Origin: Nitrososphaeria archaeon
GTDB taxonomy: Archaea > Thermoproteota > Nitrososphaeria > Geothermarchaeales > JDFR-13
Direction: 5' to 3'
Length of the DNA stretch: 64,000 nt
NCBI GenBank assembly: GCA_027078545.1
Contig: JALWXN010000004.1
Span: 256,001 to 320,000, forward strand
A model generated the notes under the pieces. It was not told the DNA's origin. It was given only the letters and a program-made list of their open reading frames with translations, and did not search any database. Positions 48,089-57,433 of this stretch are shown here, in pieces. A program made the position numbers and the translations under genes. How positions within the stretch are numbered: the first letter of the stretch is position 1; each line of letters starts with the position of its first letter.

Positions 48089-48130
48089 TAACATAACCAA
48101 ATTCAAGTGGATTCACGTGTGGTGGTAATC

Positions 48131-48745
48131 GTGACCCACGGGATAGTGCTCCAGATACCCGGGGAACCAGCTGGGACATGGTACTCACTATTCAACTTGT
48201 ACTTCAGTCTGGGACTGCTAGTAGGCTCAGTAGTAATAGGGATGTTGTTGTATTTCGTCTGGAAGTACAGAGAGTCAGTATCAAACGAGAGTGACGACAT
48301 AAAGCCAGGGGTAGTGCCTGGAGAACGGAGTAACATGAAGCTCATAGTAGTATTCTTTGGGCTAACATCGATCATACTCTTCACACTAGCGTCATACTCC
48401 ATCTTAGTGACTAACTATGTGGAGAAGGTTCCCAAGGCAGACGACATATTCGAGGTAACGGTGCAGGGTTTCCAGTGGGGTTGGCGCTTCATATACCCCA
48501 ATGGAACGGAGGTCGTTGGTGAGGTTGTGGTTCCAAAGGATAAGATCGTCGTCTTCAGAATAACCAGCATGGATGTTTTCCATAAGTTCCAACTTATTGA
48601 GTTTAGAACAGGTGCAGACGCTCTTCCAGGAGCCTTTAACGTGATATGGATAAAGCCTACTGAGGCCGGCACATACACCATACAGTGCTATGAGCTCTGT
48701 GGAATTGGGCATTCCTTGATGGTCGCTACTCTGAGGGTCGTGTGA
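48131..48745 (+). CDS. coxB: heme-copper oxidase subunit II (CuA); start uncertain (48107-48146)
   Basis: Two TM helices, GFQWGWRF, DVFH, CuA motif CYELCGIGHSLM. Confidence 0.95.
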   Translation: MTHGIVLQIPGEPAGTWYSLFNLYFSLGLLVGSVVIGMLLYFVWKYRESVSNESDDIKPGVVPGERSNMKLIVVFFGLTSIILFTLASYSILVTNYVEKVPKADDIFEVTVQGFQWGWRFIYPNGTEVVGEVVVPKDKIVVFRITSMDVFHKFQLIEFRTGADALPGAFNVIWIKPTEAGTYTIQCYELCGIGHSLMVATLRVV

Positions 48746-48762: not shown

Positions 48763-51096
48763 GTGGAGAACAAGAGTGGATTGATGAGATGGCTAACAAC
48801 TACGAATCATAAGGACATAGGGCTTCTATACTTAGTAACTTCGCTATACTTCCTAATGGTAGGAGGTACATTGGCTCTAACCTTCAGGCTACAACTAGCC
48901 TTCCCCCAAGCGGAGATTCTCAGCGCATCTGCCTTTAACCAAGCAATAACTATGCACGGACTTATAATGGTGCTATGGGCAATCTCTCCCTTCGCCTTCG
49001 CCTTCGCCAACTATATAGTGCCGATCCAGATTGGAGCTAGGGACATGGCGTTCCCTAGGCTTAACGCGCTTAGCTACTGGCTCTACTTATTTAGTGGCCT
49101 CCTAGCAGCATTATCGTTCTTCCTACCGGGTGGGGCCCCTGATGTAGGGTGGACCTACTACGTGCCATTGTCAACTCCCAAGTTTACCCCTCAGCCAGGT
49201 GTCACAGTCGCAGCTTTGGCATTAGCAATGCTGGTCGCTTCTGTGACCGTTGGTACGATAAACTTCATTGTTACGATTGCAACCTTGAGGGCACCGGGAA
49301 TGGGCTGGTCTAAACTACCCATGTTTACTTGGGGGATACTTTACACAGTGTTGCTTATGTTGTTCGCATTTGGGCCAGTGGCTGCAGGTTTCTTCCTACT
49401 AGCTATAGATAGAGTGTTTGGCACAGCATTCTTCACCTCTCCGGAAGGAGGAGCCATACTATGGACGCACATGTTCTGGTTCTTTGGCCATCCCGAGGTC
49501 TACATTGTACTCGCTCCTGCTATCGGTGTTGTTGGTGATGTGATAGAGACCTTTACCAGGAAGCCTCTCTTTGGAAGGAAGTACATACTGATTGCTTTCG
49601 GAATAGCCAGCTTCATCAGCTTCATAGTATACGTTCACCACATGTTTGCTACAGGAATCAACCCCATAATTAGAGAAGTGATGAGCATAACTACGGAGTC
49701 GATATCAGTCCCATTCGGCGTAATAATGCTGTCATTCATATTCTCGTTCTACAAGGCTAGGGTGAGGATCAGGACACCTCTGCTCTTCGCGATAGGATCC
49801 ATAGTACTATTCATTGTTGGAGGCATAACGGGTGTGTTCAACTCCTCAATAGCTCTAGACAGGTTTATCCGTGGCACCTACTGGGTAGTTGCTCACTTCC
49901 ACTACGCGATGGTCGGTGCGACACTCTTTGGACTTCTAGCAGCGATGTACTACTGGTATCCAAAGATAACTGGCAAGATGTACGATGAAAAGCTAGGTAA
50001 GATACACTTCGCCATAGCGTTCATCGGCTTTAACCTACTATACTTCCCAATGTTCGTTATCTACGAGATGCCTAGGAGAGTAAACACCTACTTCGTAGAG
50101 GAATGGATACCGATGAACCAGTTAGCGACACTAGGAGGTTATGTCTTCGGACTTTCATTCCTAATAATGGTCTACAACCTTCTAAAGAGCCTCAAAACAG
50201 GGCCACCAGCTGGTAATAACCCGTGGGGTGCCTGGACTCTAGAGTGGATGACAACCTCTCCCCCACCGCCACATAACTTCGACTTCGAGCCCATGATAAG
50301 TGGTAATCAGATCACCTTCTACACCAACGGAGGTGTGCCACATAAGCACATCGAGTATCACACCATGATGCCGATGTTGCTGTCTGTCTCACTGATGTTA
50401 TCGTTCTTCGGTCTTATGATGTATACACCACTGTTCATTATCGGTGCTGCGATGCTAGCAGCGGTATTGACCAAGTGGCTCATCGATGACATCTACGACA
50501 GATTCGTCATACCAGAGCCAGAAAACACTATGAAGTGGCCATTCGACCATATGAATAGGCTGAAGTTCGGTGTATGGATACTGGTAATTAGCGAGGCTAT
50601 GCTATTCGCAGCTCTATTCGGTGCATATAGCTTGCTTAGAATCAACCTGATAGGTGAATGGCCGTATGGACCAGCGGTTCACGATGTTAGGCTGGGCGGT
50701 GTCAACACAATAATCCTACTGACAAGTAGCCTAACGGTAGTACTTGCAGTCGCATATGCTAAGATGGGTGACCAGCGTAAGATGCTGTACTCACTTGGAG
50801 CGACCTATGTCTTAGGCCTAATATTCCTCGGCCTAAAGGGCTATGAGTGGATGAAGCTTTATGACGAGGGCTTCACACTGACTAGTGATCTCCCATCATC
50901 GCTATACTATGTCATGACGGGCACTCACGCAGCGCATATGATCGCGGGCATGATAGCGCTGTCATACATCATTGTGAAGGCATTGAGAGGAGTGTACAAT
51001 GAAAAGAACTATGACGGTGTAGAGGCGTTCGGAATCTATTGGCACTTCGTTGACATTGTCTGGATATTCCTATTTGCGATCTTCTACTTGATGTGA
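48763..51096 (+). CDS. coxA: heme-copper oxidase subunit I fused to subunit III (A-family, SoxM-like)
   Basis: HKDIG, TMHG, DMAFPRLN, GHPEVY, YVHH, AHFHY, MPRR; C-terminal subunit III (SEAMLF, TGTHAAH, YWHFVDIVW). Confidence 0.96.
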   Translation: MENKSGLMRWLTTTNHKDIGLLYLVTSLYFLMVGGTLALTFRLQLAFPQAEILSASAFNQAITMHGLIMVLWAISPFAFAFANYIVPIQIGARDMAFPRLNALSYWLYLFSGLLAALSFFLPGGAPDVGWTYYVPLSTPKFTPQPGVTVAALALAMLVASVTVGTINFIVTIATLRAPGMGWSKLPMFTWGILYTVLLMLFAFGPVAAGFFLLAIDRVFGTAFFTSPEGGAILWTHMFWFFGHPEVYIVLAPAIGVVGDVIETFTRKPLFGRKYILIAFGIASFISFIVYVHHMFATGINPIIREVMSITTESISVPFGVIMLSFIFSFYKARVRIRTPLLFAIGSIVLFIVGGITGVFNSSIALDRFIRGTYWVVAHFHYAMVGATLFGLLAAMYYWYPKITGKMYDEKLGKIHFAIAFIGFNLLYFPMFVIYEMPRRVNTYFVEEWIPMNQLATLGGYVFGLSFLIMVYNLLKSLKTGPPAGNNPWGAWTLEWMTTSPPPPHNFDFEPMISGNQITFYTNGGVPHKHIEYHTMMPMLLSVSLMLSFFGLMMYTPLFIIGAAMLAAVLTKWLIDDIYDRFVIPEPENTMKWPFDHMNRLKFGVWILVISEAMLFAALFGAYSLLRINLIGEWPYGPAVHDVRLGGVNTIILLTSSLTVVLAVAYAKMGDQRKMLYSLGATYVLGLIFLGLKGYEWMKLYDEGFTLTSDLPSSLYYVMTGTHAAHMIAGMIALSYIIVKALRGVYNEKNYDGVEAFGIYWHFVDIVWIFLFAIFYLM

Positions 51097-51097
51097 G

Positions 51098-51391
51098 GTG
51101 AGAATGATGGCGAAGGAGCCAATAAACCTATATGTTGGTGTTTGGGGGCTGCTGGTAGGGCTCACGATACTTGAGATATTCATGGTACTGGTGGAGATGC
51201 CGATCATACTGCTAATAACAGGTGTGCTACTCCTAGCAGGTGTGAAGGCGGGATTCGTAGCACTATTCTACCAGCACCTAAAATGGGACGACGTAGCAAT
51301 ATCATGGTTCTACCTAATGGCCCTATTCTTTGCACTATTCATCGTAATGGTCTGGACAGGTGGATCGGCGGTCTGCCAGGTGGAAATATGA
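51098..51391 (+). CDS. coxD: heme-copper oxidase subunit IV
   Basis: Three TM helices with KA.FVALFYQHLKWD motif. Confidence 0.85.
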   Translation: MRMMAKEPINLYVGVWGLLVGLTILEIFMVLVEMPIILLITGVLLLAGVKAGFVALFYQHLKWDDVAISWFYLMALFFALFIVMVWTGGSAVCQVEI

Positions 51392-51870
51392 GGGGGGTCA
51401 TCATCACACTAGTAGCAATAGCTCTAATCATCGATCTAGCGATAATAGCGGTATTGGTATTCGATCTCCAACCACCACTCCGCGGAGGTGCAACCGTCAC
51501 AATAACCCCAGACTATGAGATAACGGTCTATGGAGGGGAGACCAACATAAATGGTCAAGTGGCGTACGCATATGGACTATCCCCCGACAACCTTACAGTA
51601 CCAGGCCCCTCATTCGAGTTTAAACGTGGCGATGTTGTAGGCTTCACTTTTGTGAATGTGGGGAACCTCCCACATACATTCTCATTAGTCCCCAGAGTTG
51701 ACCCTGCCAATCCAGAGATTATCGACGACTATGATACGGGACAGATTGAAGGAGGTGGTCAGGGGAGAGTTGTTGTACAGTTCAATCAGGTGGGTACACT
51801 GAACTATCAATGTGTGGTGCCAGGTCACGCTGCTCTGGGGATGTGGGGGAATATAACGGTAACTGAGTAG
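51388..51870 (+). CDS. membrane-anchored blue copper protein (sulfocyanin/plastocyanin-like cupredoxin)
   Basis: N-terminal TM; type-1 Cu ligands PHTF...YQCVVPGHAALGM; ATGA overlap with coxD stop. Confidence 0.9.
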   Translation: MRGVIITLVAIALIIDLAIIAVLVFDLQPPLRGGATVTITPDYEITVYGGETNINGQVAYAYGLSPDNLTVPGPSFEFKRGDVVGFTFVNVGNLPHTFSLVPRVDPANPEIIDDYDTGQIEGGGQGRVVVQFNQVGTLNYQCVVPGHAALGMWGNITVTE

Positions 51871-51943: not shown

Positions 51944-53431
51944 ATGAACAAGTTTGTTTTGGTGGTTCTACTTCTGATCACTCTGATAGTTTCGACTGTT
52001 GTGGGTATAGTCTTAGTGTTCTTTCCACAGTACTCGCCCTTGACGGGTGGTTTTACCGGAAACCAGTACATAAACCAGCCTCCAGCCGCCGACTTCACCT
52101 TAACCATGATAAATGGCACTAAGTTCAGGTTGAGTGACTATGCTGGAAAGGTTATAGTCATCTCCTTCATCTACTCTCATTGCCCTGACATATGCCCAGC
52201 TATAACCTCTGGATTTGCAGAGATAGGTGATATTTTGGAGGCTGAAGGAATTCTGGGAGATGCCATCCTTGTTCTCATACCTGTTGACTACCCGGGTGGC
52301 TATGTTGTTGCCGCCACGACTGATAGTCTTTACTACTTGAATTATAGTGGTGTCCCCGAGTGGAAGATAGAGTTGGACTATATACCCATGGGGGTAGAGA
52401 TGTCCCAGGATGCAGGGAGGATTGTGACATGGAGCGATGACACGGTATACATATATGATAGAGACGGCTCTCTACTTACAAGGTTCCTATATCCAGATGG
52501 TATTAGCGACGTGTTCGTATCGGGTGCGGGTCTATTCATCGCTGTAGCATCAGGAAACGTTGTCGACATATATATAGAGGTTTCAGAGGGGCTTGAATAT
52601 TCATACAACAAGTATTCTTCGGTCATCCTAGATAGCGATGTAGTTGGTCTGGGAGCAACAACAAATGGCACATACATATACACTGTCACTACAGACGGAC
52701 TTCTATATAGGATATACAATGGTGAGGTGGATGCCAACATAAGTGTTATTAACAAGACTGTGGTCTGGGGGGATATTGCGTATAGCGGGTCTGTGGCGCT
52801 CCTAGCGACGAATGATTCGCTCTACATGTACAACGTACTTTCCAACTCACTGATAGAGCTTCCGTTTTCACCTGATACTGTGATTGACTATGATATATCC
52901 CAAACTGGAGACTATGTTGCCTTAGTAACAGTTGACGGGGTTTACCTACTAAACGACGACGGTGAGGAGGTTTGGGTTAGACCTACAAGTGCCTCTAGTG
53001 TGTCCATATCTGGTGACAATTATTTCGTATCTATATCCGAGGGAAATAGGGTGTACAGGCTGGATATTAACGGAACTGTTCAGTGGGAAACATCTATTGA
53101 AAGCGATGTCATGTTTGTGGATGTCACTATGGAGAGGGACTCGCCTAGAAGGCTGAAGGAGTGGAGTGAGATCTACGATGCGGAACAGACAATATTCCTA
53201 TATGGATCTTACAAGACATTGTCAAGGATTTGGTCGAACTACGGAATAGCTGTTGCATATGTCGATGTGGATGATCCAGCTACATCATATCTTGTGGCTC
53301 ATACTGGGATGGTATATATCATAGATAAGGAGTTTAAGGTTAGAATCTTCTTCATAGGGGCTCCACCGCAGTGGAGCGCGTCTGACGTGGTTAATGATGT
53401 AATGATACTTGTCAAGGAGGAGGTGGAATAG
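51944..53431 (+). CDS. SCO/SenC copper chaperone interrupted by a seven-bladed beta-propeller
   Basis: TM anchor, FIYSHCPDICP, VD|ERDSP split by about 281 aa of ~40-aa repeats, distal AHT...YIID. Confidence 0.88.
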   Translation: MNKFVLVVLLLITLIVSTVVGIVLVFFPQYSPLTGGFTGNQYINQPPAADFTLTMINGTKFRLSDYAGKVIVISFIYSHCPDICPAITSGFAEIGDILEAEGILGDAILVLIPVDYPGGYVVAATTDSLYYLNYSGVPEWKIELDYIPMGVEMSQDAGRIVTWSDDTVYIYDRDGSLLTRFLYPDGISDVFVSGAGLFIAVASGNVVDIYIEVSEGLEYSYNKYSSVILDSDVVGLGATTNGTYIYTVTTDGLLYRIYNGEVDANISVINKTVVWGDIAYSGSVALLATNDSLYMYNVLSNSLIELPFSPDTVIDYDISQTGDYVALVTVDGVYLLNDDGEEVWVRPTSASSVSISGDNYFVSISEGNRVYRLDINGTVQWETSIESDVMFVDVTMERDSPRRLKEWSEIYDAEQTIFLYGSYKTLSRIWSNYGIAVAYVDVDDPATSYLVAHTGMVYIIDKEFKVRIFFIGAPPQWSASDVVNDVMILVKEEVE

Positions 53432-53454: not shown

Positions 53455-54147
53455 CTATATCCTTACTTTCCCTGCTACATAGATCATTACAGCTATGTTG
53501 ATTATGATACCTATGACAAGTAGGCTGTTTAACAGGTTTACATATAATGCTGATACTCCTAAAAGGGTGCCTGTAGAGGATGATACTATCACTCCTGCCA
53601 CTGTCATTAGGGCTGTGAATCCACATGAAGGGCATGACACTGCTGCTGATGCCGCTGTGGAGACTCCCACTACGCTCAGTGTTGTGGCTAGTCCTGAGGT
53701 ACCAGCCTCGGCTCTACACTTACCCTTCATAGTCTTGTTATAGAACCATATTATTGTGAATACCATGGCTGATACTATCGAGACTGCTAATATAAGCGCC
53801 ATTGTAAGTGGGCTGAAGGTGACTAGCCAGTATGTCTTCCCAGTTAGGAATCCTGGATTGTTGTTCAGGAAGTAATCGTTGAACTCTAGGCCATACCATA
53901 TCAAGACGCCCCTAGGTATCTCCATGTTAGGCGTTGGGTATGTTATCTCCTTGGGAGGGTCTCCAAACCCATATATGACGCTAGTATTGCCTGTAAAGAT
54001 GATCTGCACGGCTAGGGGGGTCAGGAAATTGATTATGAAGAGTATGGATAGTGCTAATGCGAAGAAGCGTGGATGCCTAGTGAGGCTATGTACCAAAACG
54101 TTGAAGGTATGGATAAGCCTCCTCATCTCTCTAGTTATCGTAATCAT
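53455..54147 (-). CDS. hypothetical membrane protein (about 4 TM) with CPSC motif
   Basis: Hydrophobic helices, KGKCR and VSCPSCG; start uncertain. Confidence 0.7.
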   Translation of the reverse strand: MITITREMRRLIHTFNVLVHSLTRHPRFFALALSILFIINFLTPLAVQIIFTGNTSVIYGFGDPPKEITYPTPNMEIPRGVLIWYGLEFNDYFLNNNPGFLTGKTYWLVTFSPLTMALILAVSIVSAMVFTIIWFYNKTMKGKCRAEAGTSGLATTLSVVGVSTAASAAVSCPSCGFTALMTVAGVIVSSSTGTLLGVSALYVNLLNSLLVIGIIINIAVMIYVAGKVRI

Positions 54148-54171
54148 AGGTGTAGGAATATTAATGTTTAG

Positions 54172-54195
54172 CAATTCATGTATATGTATCCATGG
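54172..54195 (+). repeat. right copy of imperfect direct repeat, 2 nt before tRNA-Ser
   Basis: CAATTCAT-gtatatg-TATCCATGG. Confidence 0.5.
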
Positions 54196-54344: not shown

Positions 54345-55331
54345 GTGGAAAGATTATTCCTAATGAGCATGGTCTATCTGCTCGTCGTGGCTGCCTCGGC
54401 CCTATCTAGCCTGGTCCACTTCCTATACTTCCTGATGGCACGGGATAGGTTCGTGGCTAGGGATGTGTTCAAGCCTGAGGAGACCAGTGTGGTTGACTGG
54501 GGAGGTATTCCCCTATACTTTTCGGTATTATCATCGCTAATATTGTTCCATGTCTTCGGATTCTTGGATCTGGTTACTGTACTGGGGGTGTCTCTATCAC
54601 TTAGCATCGGCTTCATATCCGGCCTGGTGGATGATATACTGCCTTCCCTACCAGGGTATTTCAAGCCACTCACAACTGCTCTTGCCGCTGTACCCCTAAT
54701 CCTCCTAGGCCTATACACGCCCCAGCTCAGGATTTTCGACGGCTATGTATATAGCCTCCCCATCATATATCCACTCCTCATGCTGGGCGGCTTCGCGATC
54801 TCAGCCAATGCCGTGAACATGCTGGATGTCATCAATGGATCCGCCTTGATCGGGAGCTTCATAGTTGTCTATACTGCTTCGATGGCCGCCGCCCTGGCAG
54901 GTTCTACACCCGTGGTTCCTCTTATATTCCTCTCCTGTATGGTCCCCCTTGCATATCTAAATATGTATCCTGCTAGGATGTTCCTTGGGAATAGTGGGGC
55001 TTTGATGCTCGGCGTTATGATAGGCGTCTCGGCGGTGTTACTGGGTGTCGAGACTGTGGTGATGTTCTCGATGTATCCCTTCCTTGTCAACGGCCTGTTC
55101 TACCTGATAAGGTTTAGGGGGTTCCTAGAGAGGCGTAGGCATGGATACCGTGTCGCTGCTCTTGGTGGTGATGGGCTGATCCATGACATGTGTGAGGAGG
55201 GGGCTCCACTAGTTCTTCTCAAGTATCTAGTCGCCTCTAGGCCGAAGTCGGAGCTCAGGGTTTTGTACGAGATAATCCTGCTATTCATATTCTCCTCGTT
55301 GGTGGGCCTAGCTATATACCTCGGGATGTAG
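54345..55331 (+). CDS. polyprenyl-phosphate GlcNAc-1-phosphate transferase (MraY/GPT family, AglH-like)
   Basis: About 10 TM helices; GG, GLVDD, NAVNMLD.ING, N.YPARMFLGNSG. Confidence 0.85.
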   Translation: MERLFLMSMVYLLVVAASALSSLVHFLYFLMARDRFVARDVFKPEETSVVDWGGIPLYFSVLSSLILFHVFGFLDLVTVLGVSLSLSIGFISGLVDDILPSLPGYFKPLTTALAAVPLILLGLYTPQLRIFDGYVYSLPIIYPLLMLGGFAISANAVNMLDVINGSALIGSFIVVYTASMAAALAGSTPVVPLIFLSCMVPLAYLNMYPARMFLGNSGALMLGVMIGVSAVLLGVETVVMFSMYPFLVNGLFYLIRFRGFLERRRHGYRVAALGGDGLIHDMCEEGAPLVLLKYLVASRPKSELRVLYEIILLFIFSSLVGLAIYLGM

Positions 55332-55567: not shown

Positions 55568-55612
55568 CCTAATTTTAGGGCCTCCTCTATGATTATTCTG
55601 TAGGTGCCTATA

Positions 55613-57433
55613 GTGTGTGGAATAATTGGGATCATCGCCTCCCAGGGAAACATCGTGGAGGAGCTGTACCGAGGCCTAAAGCTCCTCGAGTATAGGGGTT
55701 ACGACTCTGCCGGCATGGCTGTTGTGAAGGATGGGGAGCTCCTGATAATCAAGGATAAGGGGATGATAGAGGAGATACATAAGAGGTATAACTTCCTCTC
55801 ACTCGAGGGGAGTGTGGGTATCGCCCATACGAGGTGGGCTACGCATGGCGCTCCGGACAAGGTGAATGCTCATCCCCATACAGACTGTACGGAAACCATC
55901 GCCGTCGTACATAATGGTATCATTGAGAACTACCTGGAGCTCAAGGAGGAGCTGATGAAGAGGGGCCACGTATTCAAATCTAGGACCGACACTGAGGTCG
56001 TGCCCCACCTTATAGAGGAGTATATGAGGAGTGGCCTCACATTCAGGGATGCCTTTATAAAGGCTGTTAAGAGGCTCAGGGGGGCATATGCTATAGCAGC
56101 TATCTCCGCTAATTCGCCGGATAAGATCATGTGTGCCAGGGCTGAGAGCCCCCTCGTCCTTGGCGTTGGTAATGGTAGGGGGTACTGCTCAAGTGATATA
56201 CCCAGCCTGGTAGCCTTCACCGACTCGGTCCTGCCACTGGGGGAGGGTGAGTATGCGGTTATAACTCCGGACTCGGTCTCGATAAGGAGGATATCTGACG
56301 ACAGCCCTGTGAGGAGGAAGTTTAAGAAGGTGAGTATGAGTGTAGAGGAGGCTAAGAAGGAGGGGTATCCCCACTACATGTTGAAGGAGATTCATGAGCA
56401 GCCCTATACGATCAAGTATGCCCTCGAGCTCCAGAGGAACTATCTCGACCTCATGTCCAGCTTCATTGATAGGGCTTCACGCCTATTCTTCGTCGCGGCT
56501 GGGACATCCTACCATGCAGGTATGGTGGGTAGCTATGTCTTCTCTAAGCTGGCTAGGGTGGTCGGCTTCCCGGTCATAGCATCTGAATTTGTATCACACT
56601 ATGGCGAGTCCGTCTCTGTTGATGATGCCGTCCTAGCGATTAGTCAGAGCGGGGAGACTAGGGATGTGCTCTGGGCGGTTGAGTATGCCAAGGCCAGGGG
56701 TGCCACTGTCCTAGCCATCGTTAATGTGCTCGCCTCCACACTCACGAGGATAGCTAGGGTGTATCTCCACCAGCAGAGCGGGCCTGAGATAGGTGTAGCC
56801 GCTACCAAGACCTATACCGGGCAGCTCGCCAGTCTATATCTTTTGGCCCTGACCCTAGCCAGGAATAGGGGTAAGCTTGGCCAGGATGAGCTGGATCACT
56901 ATCTGCAGGAGCTGTACCGTACCCCAGGGGTTGTGAGGGAGGTTCTTGGCCAGGTGGAGGAGGATGCGAAGAGGGTTGCGAAGCTCCTGAAGGACGCTAG
57001 ATACGTGATCTTTCTAGGTAGGGGTGTGAACACAGCCACTGCCCATGAGGGTAGGCTTAAGCTCATGGAGATAAGTTATATACCCAGCCTCTCATACCCG
57101 GCGGGTGAGAATAAGCATGGCCCCATCAGCCTTATAGAGAAGGATGTGCCCGTTGTGGCCCTTGTCCAGGATGATGAGACGAAGAAGTATATGCTTAGCA
57201 ATATCCACGAGGTCCGTACGCGTGGGGCTAAGACGATAGTCATATCCTCCTCAGGGGATGAGGAGGTGTCTGAGGTGGCGGATATACTGATTGAGGTTCC
57301 TAGGGTCGAGCCCCTCTTCACGCCTATAACCTATGTCGTGCCTCTCCAGCTCATCGCCTACTACACTGCGGTGCTCCGTGGTCTAGACCCTGATAAGCCC
57401 CGTAACCTGGCTAAAAGCGTCACTGTGATCTAG
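55613..57433 (+). CDS. glmS: glutamine--fructose-6-phosphate transaminase
   Basis: (M)CGIIG, EYRGYDSAG, HTRWATHG, SQSGET, PRNLAKSVTV. Confidence 0.97.
   Translation: MCGIIGIIASQGNIVEELYRGLKLLEYRGYDSAGMAVVKDGELLIIKDKGMIEEIHKRYNFLSLEGSVGIAHTRWATHGAPDKVNAHPHTDCTETIAVVHNGIIENYLELKEELMKRGHVFKSRTDTEVVPHLIEEYMRSGLTFRDAFIKAVKRLRGAYAIAAISANSPDKIMCARAESPLVLGVGNGRGYCSSDIPSLVAFTDSVLPLGEGEYAVITPDSVSIRRISDDSPVRRKFKKVSMSVEEAKKEGYPHYMLKEIHEQPYTIKYALELQRNYLDLMSSFIDRASRLFFVAAGTSYHAGMVGSYVFSKLARVVGFPVIASEFVSHYGESVSVDDAVLAISQSGETRDVLWAVEYAKARGATVLAIVNVLASTLTRIARVYLHQQSGPEIGVAATKTYTGQLASLYLLALTLARNRGKLGQDELDHYLQELYRTPGVVREVLGQVEEDAKRVAKLLKDARYVIFLGRGVNTATAHEGRLKLMEISYIPSLSYPAGENKHGPISLIEKDVPVVALVQDDETKKYMLSNIHEVRTRGAKTIVISSSGDEEVSEVADILIEVPRVEPLFTPITYVVPLQLIAYYTAVLRGLDPDKPRNLAKSVTVI

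Follow-up and report, generated by a model that had tools for sequence, protein, structure and literature searches.

The only SCO1/SenC gene of an uncultured hot-spring archaeon (Candidatus Geothermarchaeota; genome ~1.24 Mb, 11 contigs, 92% complete) encodes a copper chaperone whose domain is split, inside its VDPERD motif, by a complete seven-bladed beta-propeller. This propeller entered the protein in a single event and is maintained by purifying selection, and the hallmarks of SCO proteins are kept on either side of it. On balance, we lean towards the view that the protein is a working SCO chaperone serving CuA, in which the once-inserted propeller forms a wall or recognition surface beside the copper site; the nearness of the propeller to this site, and its role there, are suggested by the arrangement of the fold. 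The gene lies in the window, the 64,000-nucleotide stretch of DNA that was analysed, and its parts are the following.

51944..53431, plus strand: whole gene for SCO1/SenC with nested beta-propeller (open reading frame of 495 aa plus stop; PF02630).
51944..52021, plus strand: N-terminal membrane anchor, residues 1-26 (hydrophobic stretch after M-N-K; modelled helix 3-26).
52079..52288, plus strand: SCO N-terminal half, residues 46-115, ending ...LIPVD (alignment to ScoI 4wbj and to unsplit orthologues).
52181..52195, plus strand: CxxxC copper/thiol motif, C80 P D I C84 (C80 and C84 invariant in 66 sequences).
52289..53131, plus strand: inserted seven-bladed, four-stranded beta-propeller, residues 116-396 (AlphaFold2 and DSSP, structure matches, blade alignment).
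53132..53428, plus strand: SCO C-terminal half, residues 397-495, resuming at ERDSP (alignment to ScoI 68-160).
53300..53302, plus strand: H453, distal histidine copper ligand (invariant in 66 sequences).

By every feature examined, the protein belongs to SCO1/SenC. Its frame of 495 codons is uninterrupted, with no internal stop, and the product scores 68.7 bits against Pfam PF02630 (cut-off 22.8) in a match that is split into two stretches, profile positions 2-63 and the remainder. A scan of the whole genome with this profile returns the split gene as its single match, with profile positions 2-64 and 56-132 found within the one open frame. When the protein is compared with PDB sequences using phmmer, residues 49-106 pair with residues 11-65 of Bradyrhizobium diazoefficiens Blr1131/ScoI (4wbj) and residues 388-482 pair with ScoI 68-160; because these two alignments flank ~280 residues, we conclude that one SCO domain has been cut in two. 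SCO proteins hold copper by a CxxxC motif plus a distal histidine. In an alignment of 66 sequences that includes ordinary SCO proteins of ~200 aa, the invariant columns are L53, C80, C84, D115, D399 and H453, and C80, C84 and H453 correspond to the copper ligands of ScoI, H453 pairing with the histidine of its '...DHT...' stretch in the phmmer alignment. The N-terminal anchor is kept in split and unsplit orthologues alike, and its sequence would leave the remainder of the chain on the outer side of the cell membrane.

The insert of 281 aa breaks the VDPERD motif after VD and before ERD. Where unsplit orthologues read ...LVLVSVDPERDTP... and the unsplit proteins of the genus and of other genera in the family read ...VSVDPERDTP..., the split protein reads ...LVLIPVD[YPGG...FVDVTM]ERDSP..., and ordinary SCO proteins show a single clean gap over residues 117-396 in the 66-sequence alignment. 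At the DNA level, 281 codons stand where the proline codon of the motif was; the proline is absent from the split SCO, with M396 in its place. The exact ends of the insert are ambiguous, Val-Asp being present at both junctions, and the linkers between SCO domain and propeller are short (2-5 residues), with YPGG on one side and TM on the other. The original prediction, made from the window alone, had placed the interruption at this point and had named the cysteines of CPDIC and H453 as the SCO ligands; its coordinates for the insert are exact, and the three ligands are the invariant residues just described.

Both junctions recur in six sequences of 52-93% identity that come from separate sources, which argues against an assembly chimera. 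It is true that inteins often occupy strongly conserved motifs and that this insert does too, but it starts at Y116 and ends at T395-M396 before E397, with neither a nucleophile nor a terminal His-Asn, and its fold is that of a propeller rather than HINT. A removed intron or junk sequence is also hard to reconcile with codon-level selection: compared with the copy that is 93% identical, the insert has a dN/dS of 0.053 at a dS of about 1.06, which marks it as translated, next to 0.045 for the N-terminal half and 0 (dN = 0) for the C-terminal half. Comparison of the most deeply diverged split lineages gives 64-76% identity for the SCO halves and 37-41% for the insert, and down to 37% identity the insert stays in frame and constant in length. 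Given this retention together with the low dN/dS, we take the insert to be a translated, selected domain, and we consider the idea that the feature is not real (chimera, intein or removed intron) to be effectively refuted.

With the six full-length homologues alone, AlphaFold2 models the middle of the protein confidently and the SCO part poorly; with the 66-row alignment, the model has a mean pLDDT of 95.3 and a pTM of 0.88, and the insert region exceeds a pLDDT of 90. DSSP assigns 28 strands to residues 121-394 of this model, that is, seven blades of four strands each, and strand 391-394 closes the ring as strand A of blade 1. Rebuilt from residues 388-396 plus 116-146, this blade aligns with the other six, YPGG forming the A-B turn, from which it follows that the SCO domain occupies the A-B loop of blade 1. 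The SCO lipoprotein 4hde_A superposes on the model with a Z of 20.3 and 2.1 Å over 164 of 168 residues, in the range 36-491; since this match spans both halves, the SCO halves reassemble into a full fold in the model. From this whole-fold superposition, C80, C84 and H453 would be expected to cluster in one copper site. Three claims of the original prediction are thus borne out: that the insert is built of seven repeats of ~40 aa, now matched by the strand count and by seven-bladed structural relatives; that a predicted structure should hold both an intact thioredoxin-like SCO fold and a closed propeller; and that the insertion preserves the host fold, as the superposition on a solved SCO over both halves indicates.

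The closest propellers found with Foldseek and VIA-align are seven-bladed, headed by the designed WRAP-T (7bid, Z 26.1), and the archaeal surface-layer YVTN propeller 1l0q matches the insert with a Z of 24.0 in VIA-align. In sequence, the insert scanned alone reaches 29.1 bits against DUF5711 (PF18975; cut-off 26.3), a family for which the whole protein, at 24.7 bits, stays below that cut-off and the genome scan gives only 16.9 bits. No Pfam match to NHL repeats (PF01436) is found in the whole protein or in the isolated insert. Recent amplification of a blade was considered and rejected, as the blades are only 8-33% identical to one another in the blade alignment.

The genomic setting of the gene is that of a respiratory oxidase. 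The SCO gene is the last in the cluster CoxII(CuA)-CoxI/III-CoxIV-cupredoxin-SCO, and a convergent gene follows it.

48107..48745, plus strand: CoxII with complete CuA motif, H159, C194, E196, C198, H202, M205 (Pfam COX2).
48763..51096, plus strand: fused CoxI+III, 777 aa (open reading frame; synteny with relatives).
51098..51391, plus strand: prokaryotic oxidase subunit IV (Pfam COX4_pro).
51388..51870, plus strand: membrane-anchored type-1 cupredoxin, H96, C142, H147, M152, numbered from the M at 51388 (Pfam Copper-bind).
53455..54174, minus strand: convergent 239-aa membrane protein with CPSC motif (synteny).

CoxII is the canonical client of SCO, and here its CuA residues, in the motif H...CxExCxxxHxxM, are invariant columns. 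The cupredoxin is a possible second copper client. Its ATG at 51388 overlaps the coxIV stop (ATGA, 51388-51391), a sequence arrangement that suggests translational coupling, and a longer cupredoxin frame from 51283 is probably not the one used. The fusion of CoxI with CoxIII is kept in relatives, with 61-98% identity over the matched parts. On the far side of the SCO gene, the multi-pass CPSC protein carries its motif within a hydrophobic stretch; it has no Pfam family, and the Atlas returns only unnamed bacterial clusters for it (0.92). In genomes of the family its gene neighbours SCO, be the latter split or unsplit, at 28-96% identity, and the protein is a possible accessory, copper carrier or reductant supplier for SCO. 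In CuA assembly SCO usually works together with PCuAC, a gene for which (PF04314, 70 bits) lies on the same contig at G000:C4:735770-736087, a long way from the oxidase genes. The insert does not track the presence or absence of PCuAC, and such a link was rejected: PCuAC is found in both genomes with the split form, G000 and G002, and in one with the unsplit form, G003.

The architecture is rare. Among 5.8 billion clusters, the full split form occurs in five other proteins, at 93, 78, 75, 52 and 52% identity (the 93%-identical copy is on WAKB01000010.1), and a profile search of 1.84 billion representatives yields no further cluster with a full-length match. Of 96 SCO-type proteins, only these six split ones are interrupted at the VDPERD site, and neither the databases nor the literature searched provided another seven-bladed propeller nested in this motif. 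That the architecture was unfamiliar, as the original prediction had remarked, is thus upheld, a search for split SCO proteins having turned up only the five further full-length cases.

Three other species of the same genus (G001, G003 and G004) and other genera of the family have an unsplit SCO of 212-216 aa, and in the loci with enough flanking DNA for gene order to be compared (G001, G003, G004 and G012) this unsplit SCO lies between the same cupredoxin and convergent membrane-protein genes. The metagenome contig that carries a 52%-identical split form (P0006) has the same synteny, from CoxII to GlmS. In a maximum-likelihood tree of the SCO halves, the six split forms make up one clade with support of 100/99, and their monophyly argues for a single insertion event; the clade has the genus's unsplit clade as its sister group and stands on a long stem of 0.54. 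Taken together, the sequences point to insertion of the propeller once, in a common ancestor of one sub-clade within a genus of Candidatus Geothermarchaeota. Fifteen substitutions in the SCO halves are specific to the split clade, T78S and T420Y among them, with no clear clustering seen when they are viewed without coordinates. The unsplit SCO of G012, which belongs to another genus, is nearly identical (L006/L025) to that of G003 (L008/L020), with branches of ~0.08, which points to bin contamination, misassignment or recent transfer.

The source of the propeller was also sought. No second propeller copy, DUF5711-like or similar, is present in the genome itself, no paralogue of the insert occurs in 17 genomes searched in the order, and no close homologue that could be a donor is found in the 5.8 billion clusters beyond the SCO::propeller proteins themselves. 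The other similarities of the insert are remote, being out-of-register and at repeat level, to a large prokaryotic propeller family.

Conservation within the propeller is strongly one-sided, as judged from six sequences that represent about three independent lineages. The invariant positions are distributed over the parts of the blades as follows.

A-B loops 59%, A strands 44%, C-D loops 28%.
B-C loops 5%, D-A loops 5%, D strands 7%.

Four-stranded blades have their A-B and C-D loops on the same face. As this is the face that carries the SCO domain, the conserved face of the propeller is the SCO-proximal one, and the distal face has been free to vary. The conserved A-B turn, of S-x-D-G type, also characterises the repeat family as a whole, and structure alone may explain why it is conserved.

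This pattern bears directly on the function envisaged in the original prediction, a built-in docking scaffold for CuA or cupredoxin assembly; the architecture and host fold on which that idea was built stand, and the functional step has found no direct support. In its fullest form, the idea is that the outward face of the propeller holds apo-CoxII, the cupredoxin or an assembly factor for metallation by SCO. Propellers commonly serve as protein-interaction platforms (PMC6107167), two copper clients are encoded directly upstream, and the cupredoxin and the SCO::propeller protein (65% and 52% identity between the window and L028) evolve faster than CoxI (83%) or GlmS (79%). However, it is the loops facing away from SCO, B-C and D-A, that are almost devoid of invariant positions, and the strongly invariant A-B loops fit a constraint at the SCO-propeller junction better than they fit a distal surface. 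The gene content of the operon is, moreover, the same where SCO is unsplit, so that no new partner came alongside the insert. We therefore consider distal docking unlikely, although it ranks next after a role at the copper site.

Less likely again, in our estimate, is that the propeller is a passenger that binds an envelope component (S-layer or glycan) or a small ligand, the SCO domain being its tolerated, anchored carrier. The surface-layer propeller among its structural relatives, the lack of an insert paralogue in the order, which suggests a foreign origin, and the purifying selection on the insert would all suit such a module, as would its chemistry, with a strongly acidic pI of about 4.05 and 3-7 N-x-S/T sequons per copy, compared with 0-1 in the SCO part (six and one in the window copy). 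Yet the middle of a conserved motif is an improbable place to receive an unrelated module, for which fusion at a terminus would suffice, and the conservation gathers on the side facing SCO. Genes for a GT4 family glycosyltransferase (54345-55331) and GlmS (55604-57433) lie just downstream of the sequon-rich insert, a proximity that is possibly coincidental.

We instead favor a role for the propeller at the copper site itself. The membrane-anchored, extracytoplasmic SCO domain would still act as a copper chaperone or thiol-disulfide oxidoreductase for the CuA site of the adjacent haem-copper oxidase, and may serve the neighboring type-1 cupredoxin as well. A propeller, probably of the DUF5711/PQQ-like class, was inserted complete between VD and ERD, replacing the proline. 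Since its two termini fall within what would be the loop joining strands A and B of blade 1, the propeller closes on itself and the SCO halves refold around it in the model. In ScoI, the CxxxC motif lies within the loop joining strand beta3 and helix alpha1 (PMC6669012). The VDPERD motif is expected to follow the next strand, which would run parallel to the beta3 strand that leads into CxxxC, and this parallel arrangement would bring insertion point and copper site to the same edge of the sheet. Based on this thioredoxin-fold topology, linkers of only 2-5 residues would hold the propeller rigidly beside the copper site, with its conserved A-B/C-D loop face turned toward the SCO domain. Our best guess is that the propeller provides a fixed wall or recognition surface that shields the copper site or adds specificity for a partner. 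We do not think that it acts as a separate enzyme or as a free distal docking platform. Because sister species use an unsplit SCO in the same operon, the propeller must be dispensable for the basic job of the chaperone.

A more active part for the propeller can also be imagined. Several residues of the insert are invariant, namely E152, D189, D277, D315 and D393 on the inner strands together with M153 and M396, and there is a slim chance that these five Asp/Glu residues and two methionines, at the SCO-facing mouth of the propeller channel, capture or gate copper for the CxxxC...H site; if so, the protein would be a two-module chaperone unlike any described, and one that arose within a single genus. 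Slimmer yet is the prospect that the same seven residues form an auxiliary site that binds a cation, possibly copper, and passes it to CxxxC...H. These carboxylates and methionines lie in A strands or the A-B loop, near the attachment point, a metal sits in the central pore of many propellers (PMC6107167), and AztD is a known beta-propeller zinc chaperone (PMC6689063). Against such a site, Cys is absent from the insert, His occurs at most once and at a non-conserved position, and acidic residues are plentiful all over it. Overall, we favor a role at the copper site, followed by distal docking and then by an unrelated passenger, with an auxiliary metal site far behind.

SCO proteins serve universally in assembling the CuA centre of respiratory oxidases, and how they recognize their clients, and how accessible their copper site needs to be, are still debated. 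Here nature appears to have placed a rigid 30-kDa domain beside that site, and strong purifying selection has preserved it. Orthologues that have the insert and orthologues that lack it, in the same operon, amount to matched natural constructs and a clean domain-insertion experiment, one that bears on the surface tolerance, specificity, stability and redox behavior of SCO in a hot extracellular setting. For protein evolution, the case is instructive in that each domain in effect sits in a loop of the other. The practical reach of these findings is limited, as only a small clade of uncultured archaea has the architecture.

Compared with canonical SCO1/SenC proteins (ScoI 4wbj/4wbr, B. anthracis 4hde and the unsplit orthologues), the protein shares the anchor, the thioredoxin-like fold, the CxxxC motif plus histidine, the (V)D..ERD residues and the location in a CuA oxidase operon; it differs in the 281-aa propeller that breaks VDPERD, in the loss of the proline and in the 0.54 stem branch on which its halves stand. 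Other SCO1/SenC proteins tolerate insertions within the fold as well. In P0143, P0090 and P0062, 160-270 aa are inserted, not at VDPERD but after the strand that follows helix alpha3 and just before the His ligand, and these inserts are unrelated in sequence, with no recognised propeller; the three proteins are 369-510 aa long, their inserts are rich in Asn, Ser and Trp, and one has a C-terminal membrane anchor. A further variant, P0014, packs two complete SCO domains in tandem into 394 aa, each with CPDxCP and DH motifs.

On the propeller side, seven blades of ~40 aa each, with a small or polar A strand, a Gly-containing turn and an aromatic residue in strand D, are common to the insert and to DUF5711/YVTN/PQQ-like propellers such as that of Methanosarcina (1l0q) and the propeller-only P0013. 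The kinship is remote and at repeat level, and here the termini lie in the A-B loop, which is taken by the host domain. The joining of a cuproprotein to a propeller has a parallel in the Deinococcus radiodurans Cu/Zn-SOD with a beta-propeller lactonase, where the fusion is not nested, the partner is an enzyme rather than a chaperone and the propeller is of another class (PMC12362111). NHLRC2 likewise combines a thioredoxin-fold domain and a beta-propeller in one polypeptide (PMC6107167), as do bacterial Trx-like/AhpC-TSA proteins with NHL repeats, and the ESM Atlas offers bacterial tandem Trx+NHL fusions as leads only (0.75-0.78). In proteins of the NHLRC2 type, however, the arrangement is tandem, the propeller is a six-bladed NHL and the thioredoxin fold is not SCO, whereas the present propeller is nested, seven-bladed, probably DUF5711/PQQ-like and set within SCO. 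Tandem thioredoxin-propeller proteins are known, and other SCO proteins carry insertions in the His loop; what is new, with respect to the databases and papers searched, is a propeller nested in the VDPERD motif.
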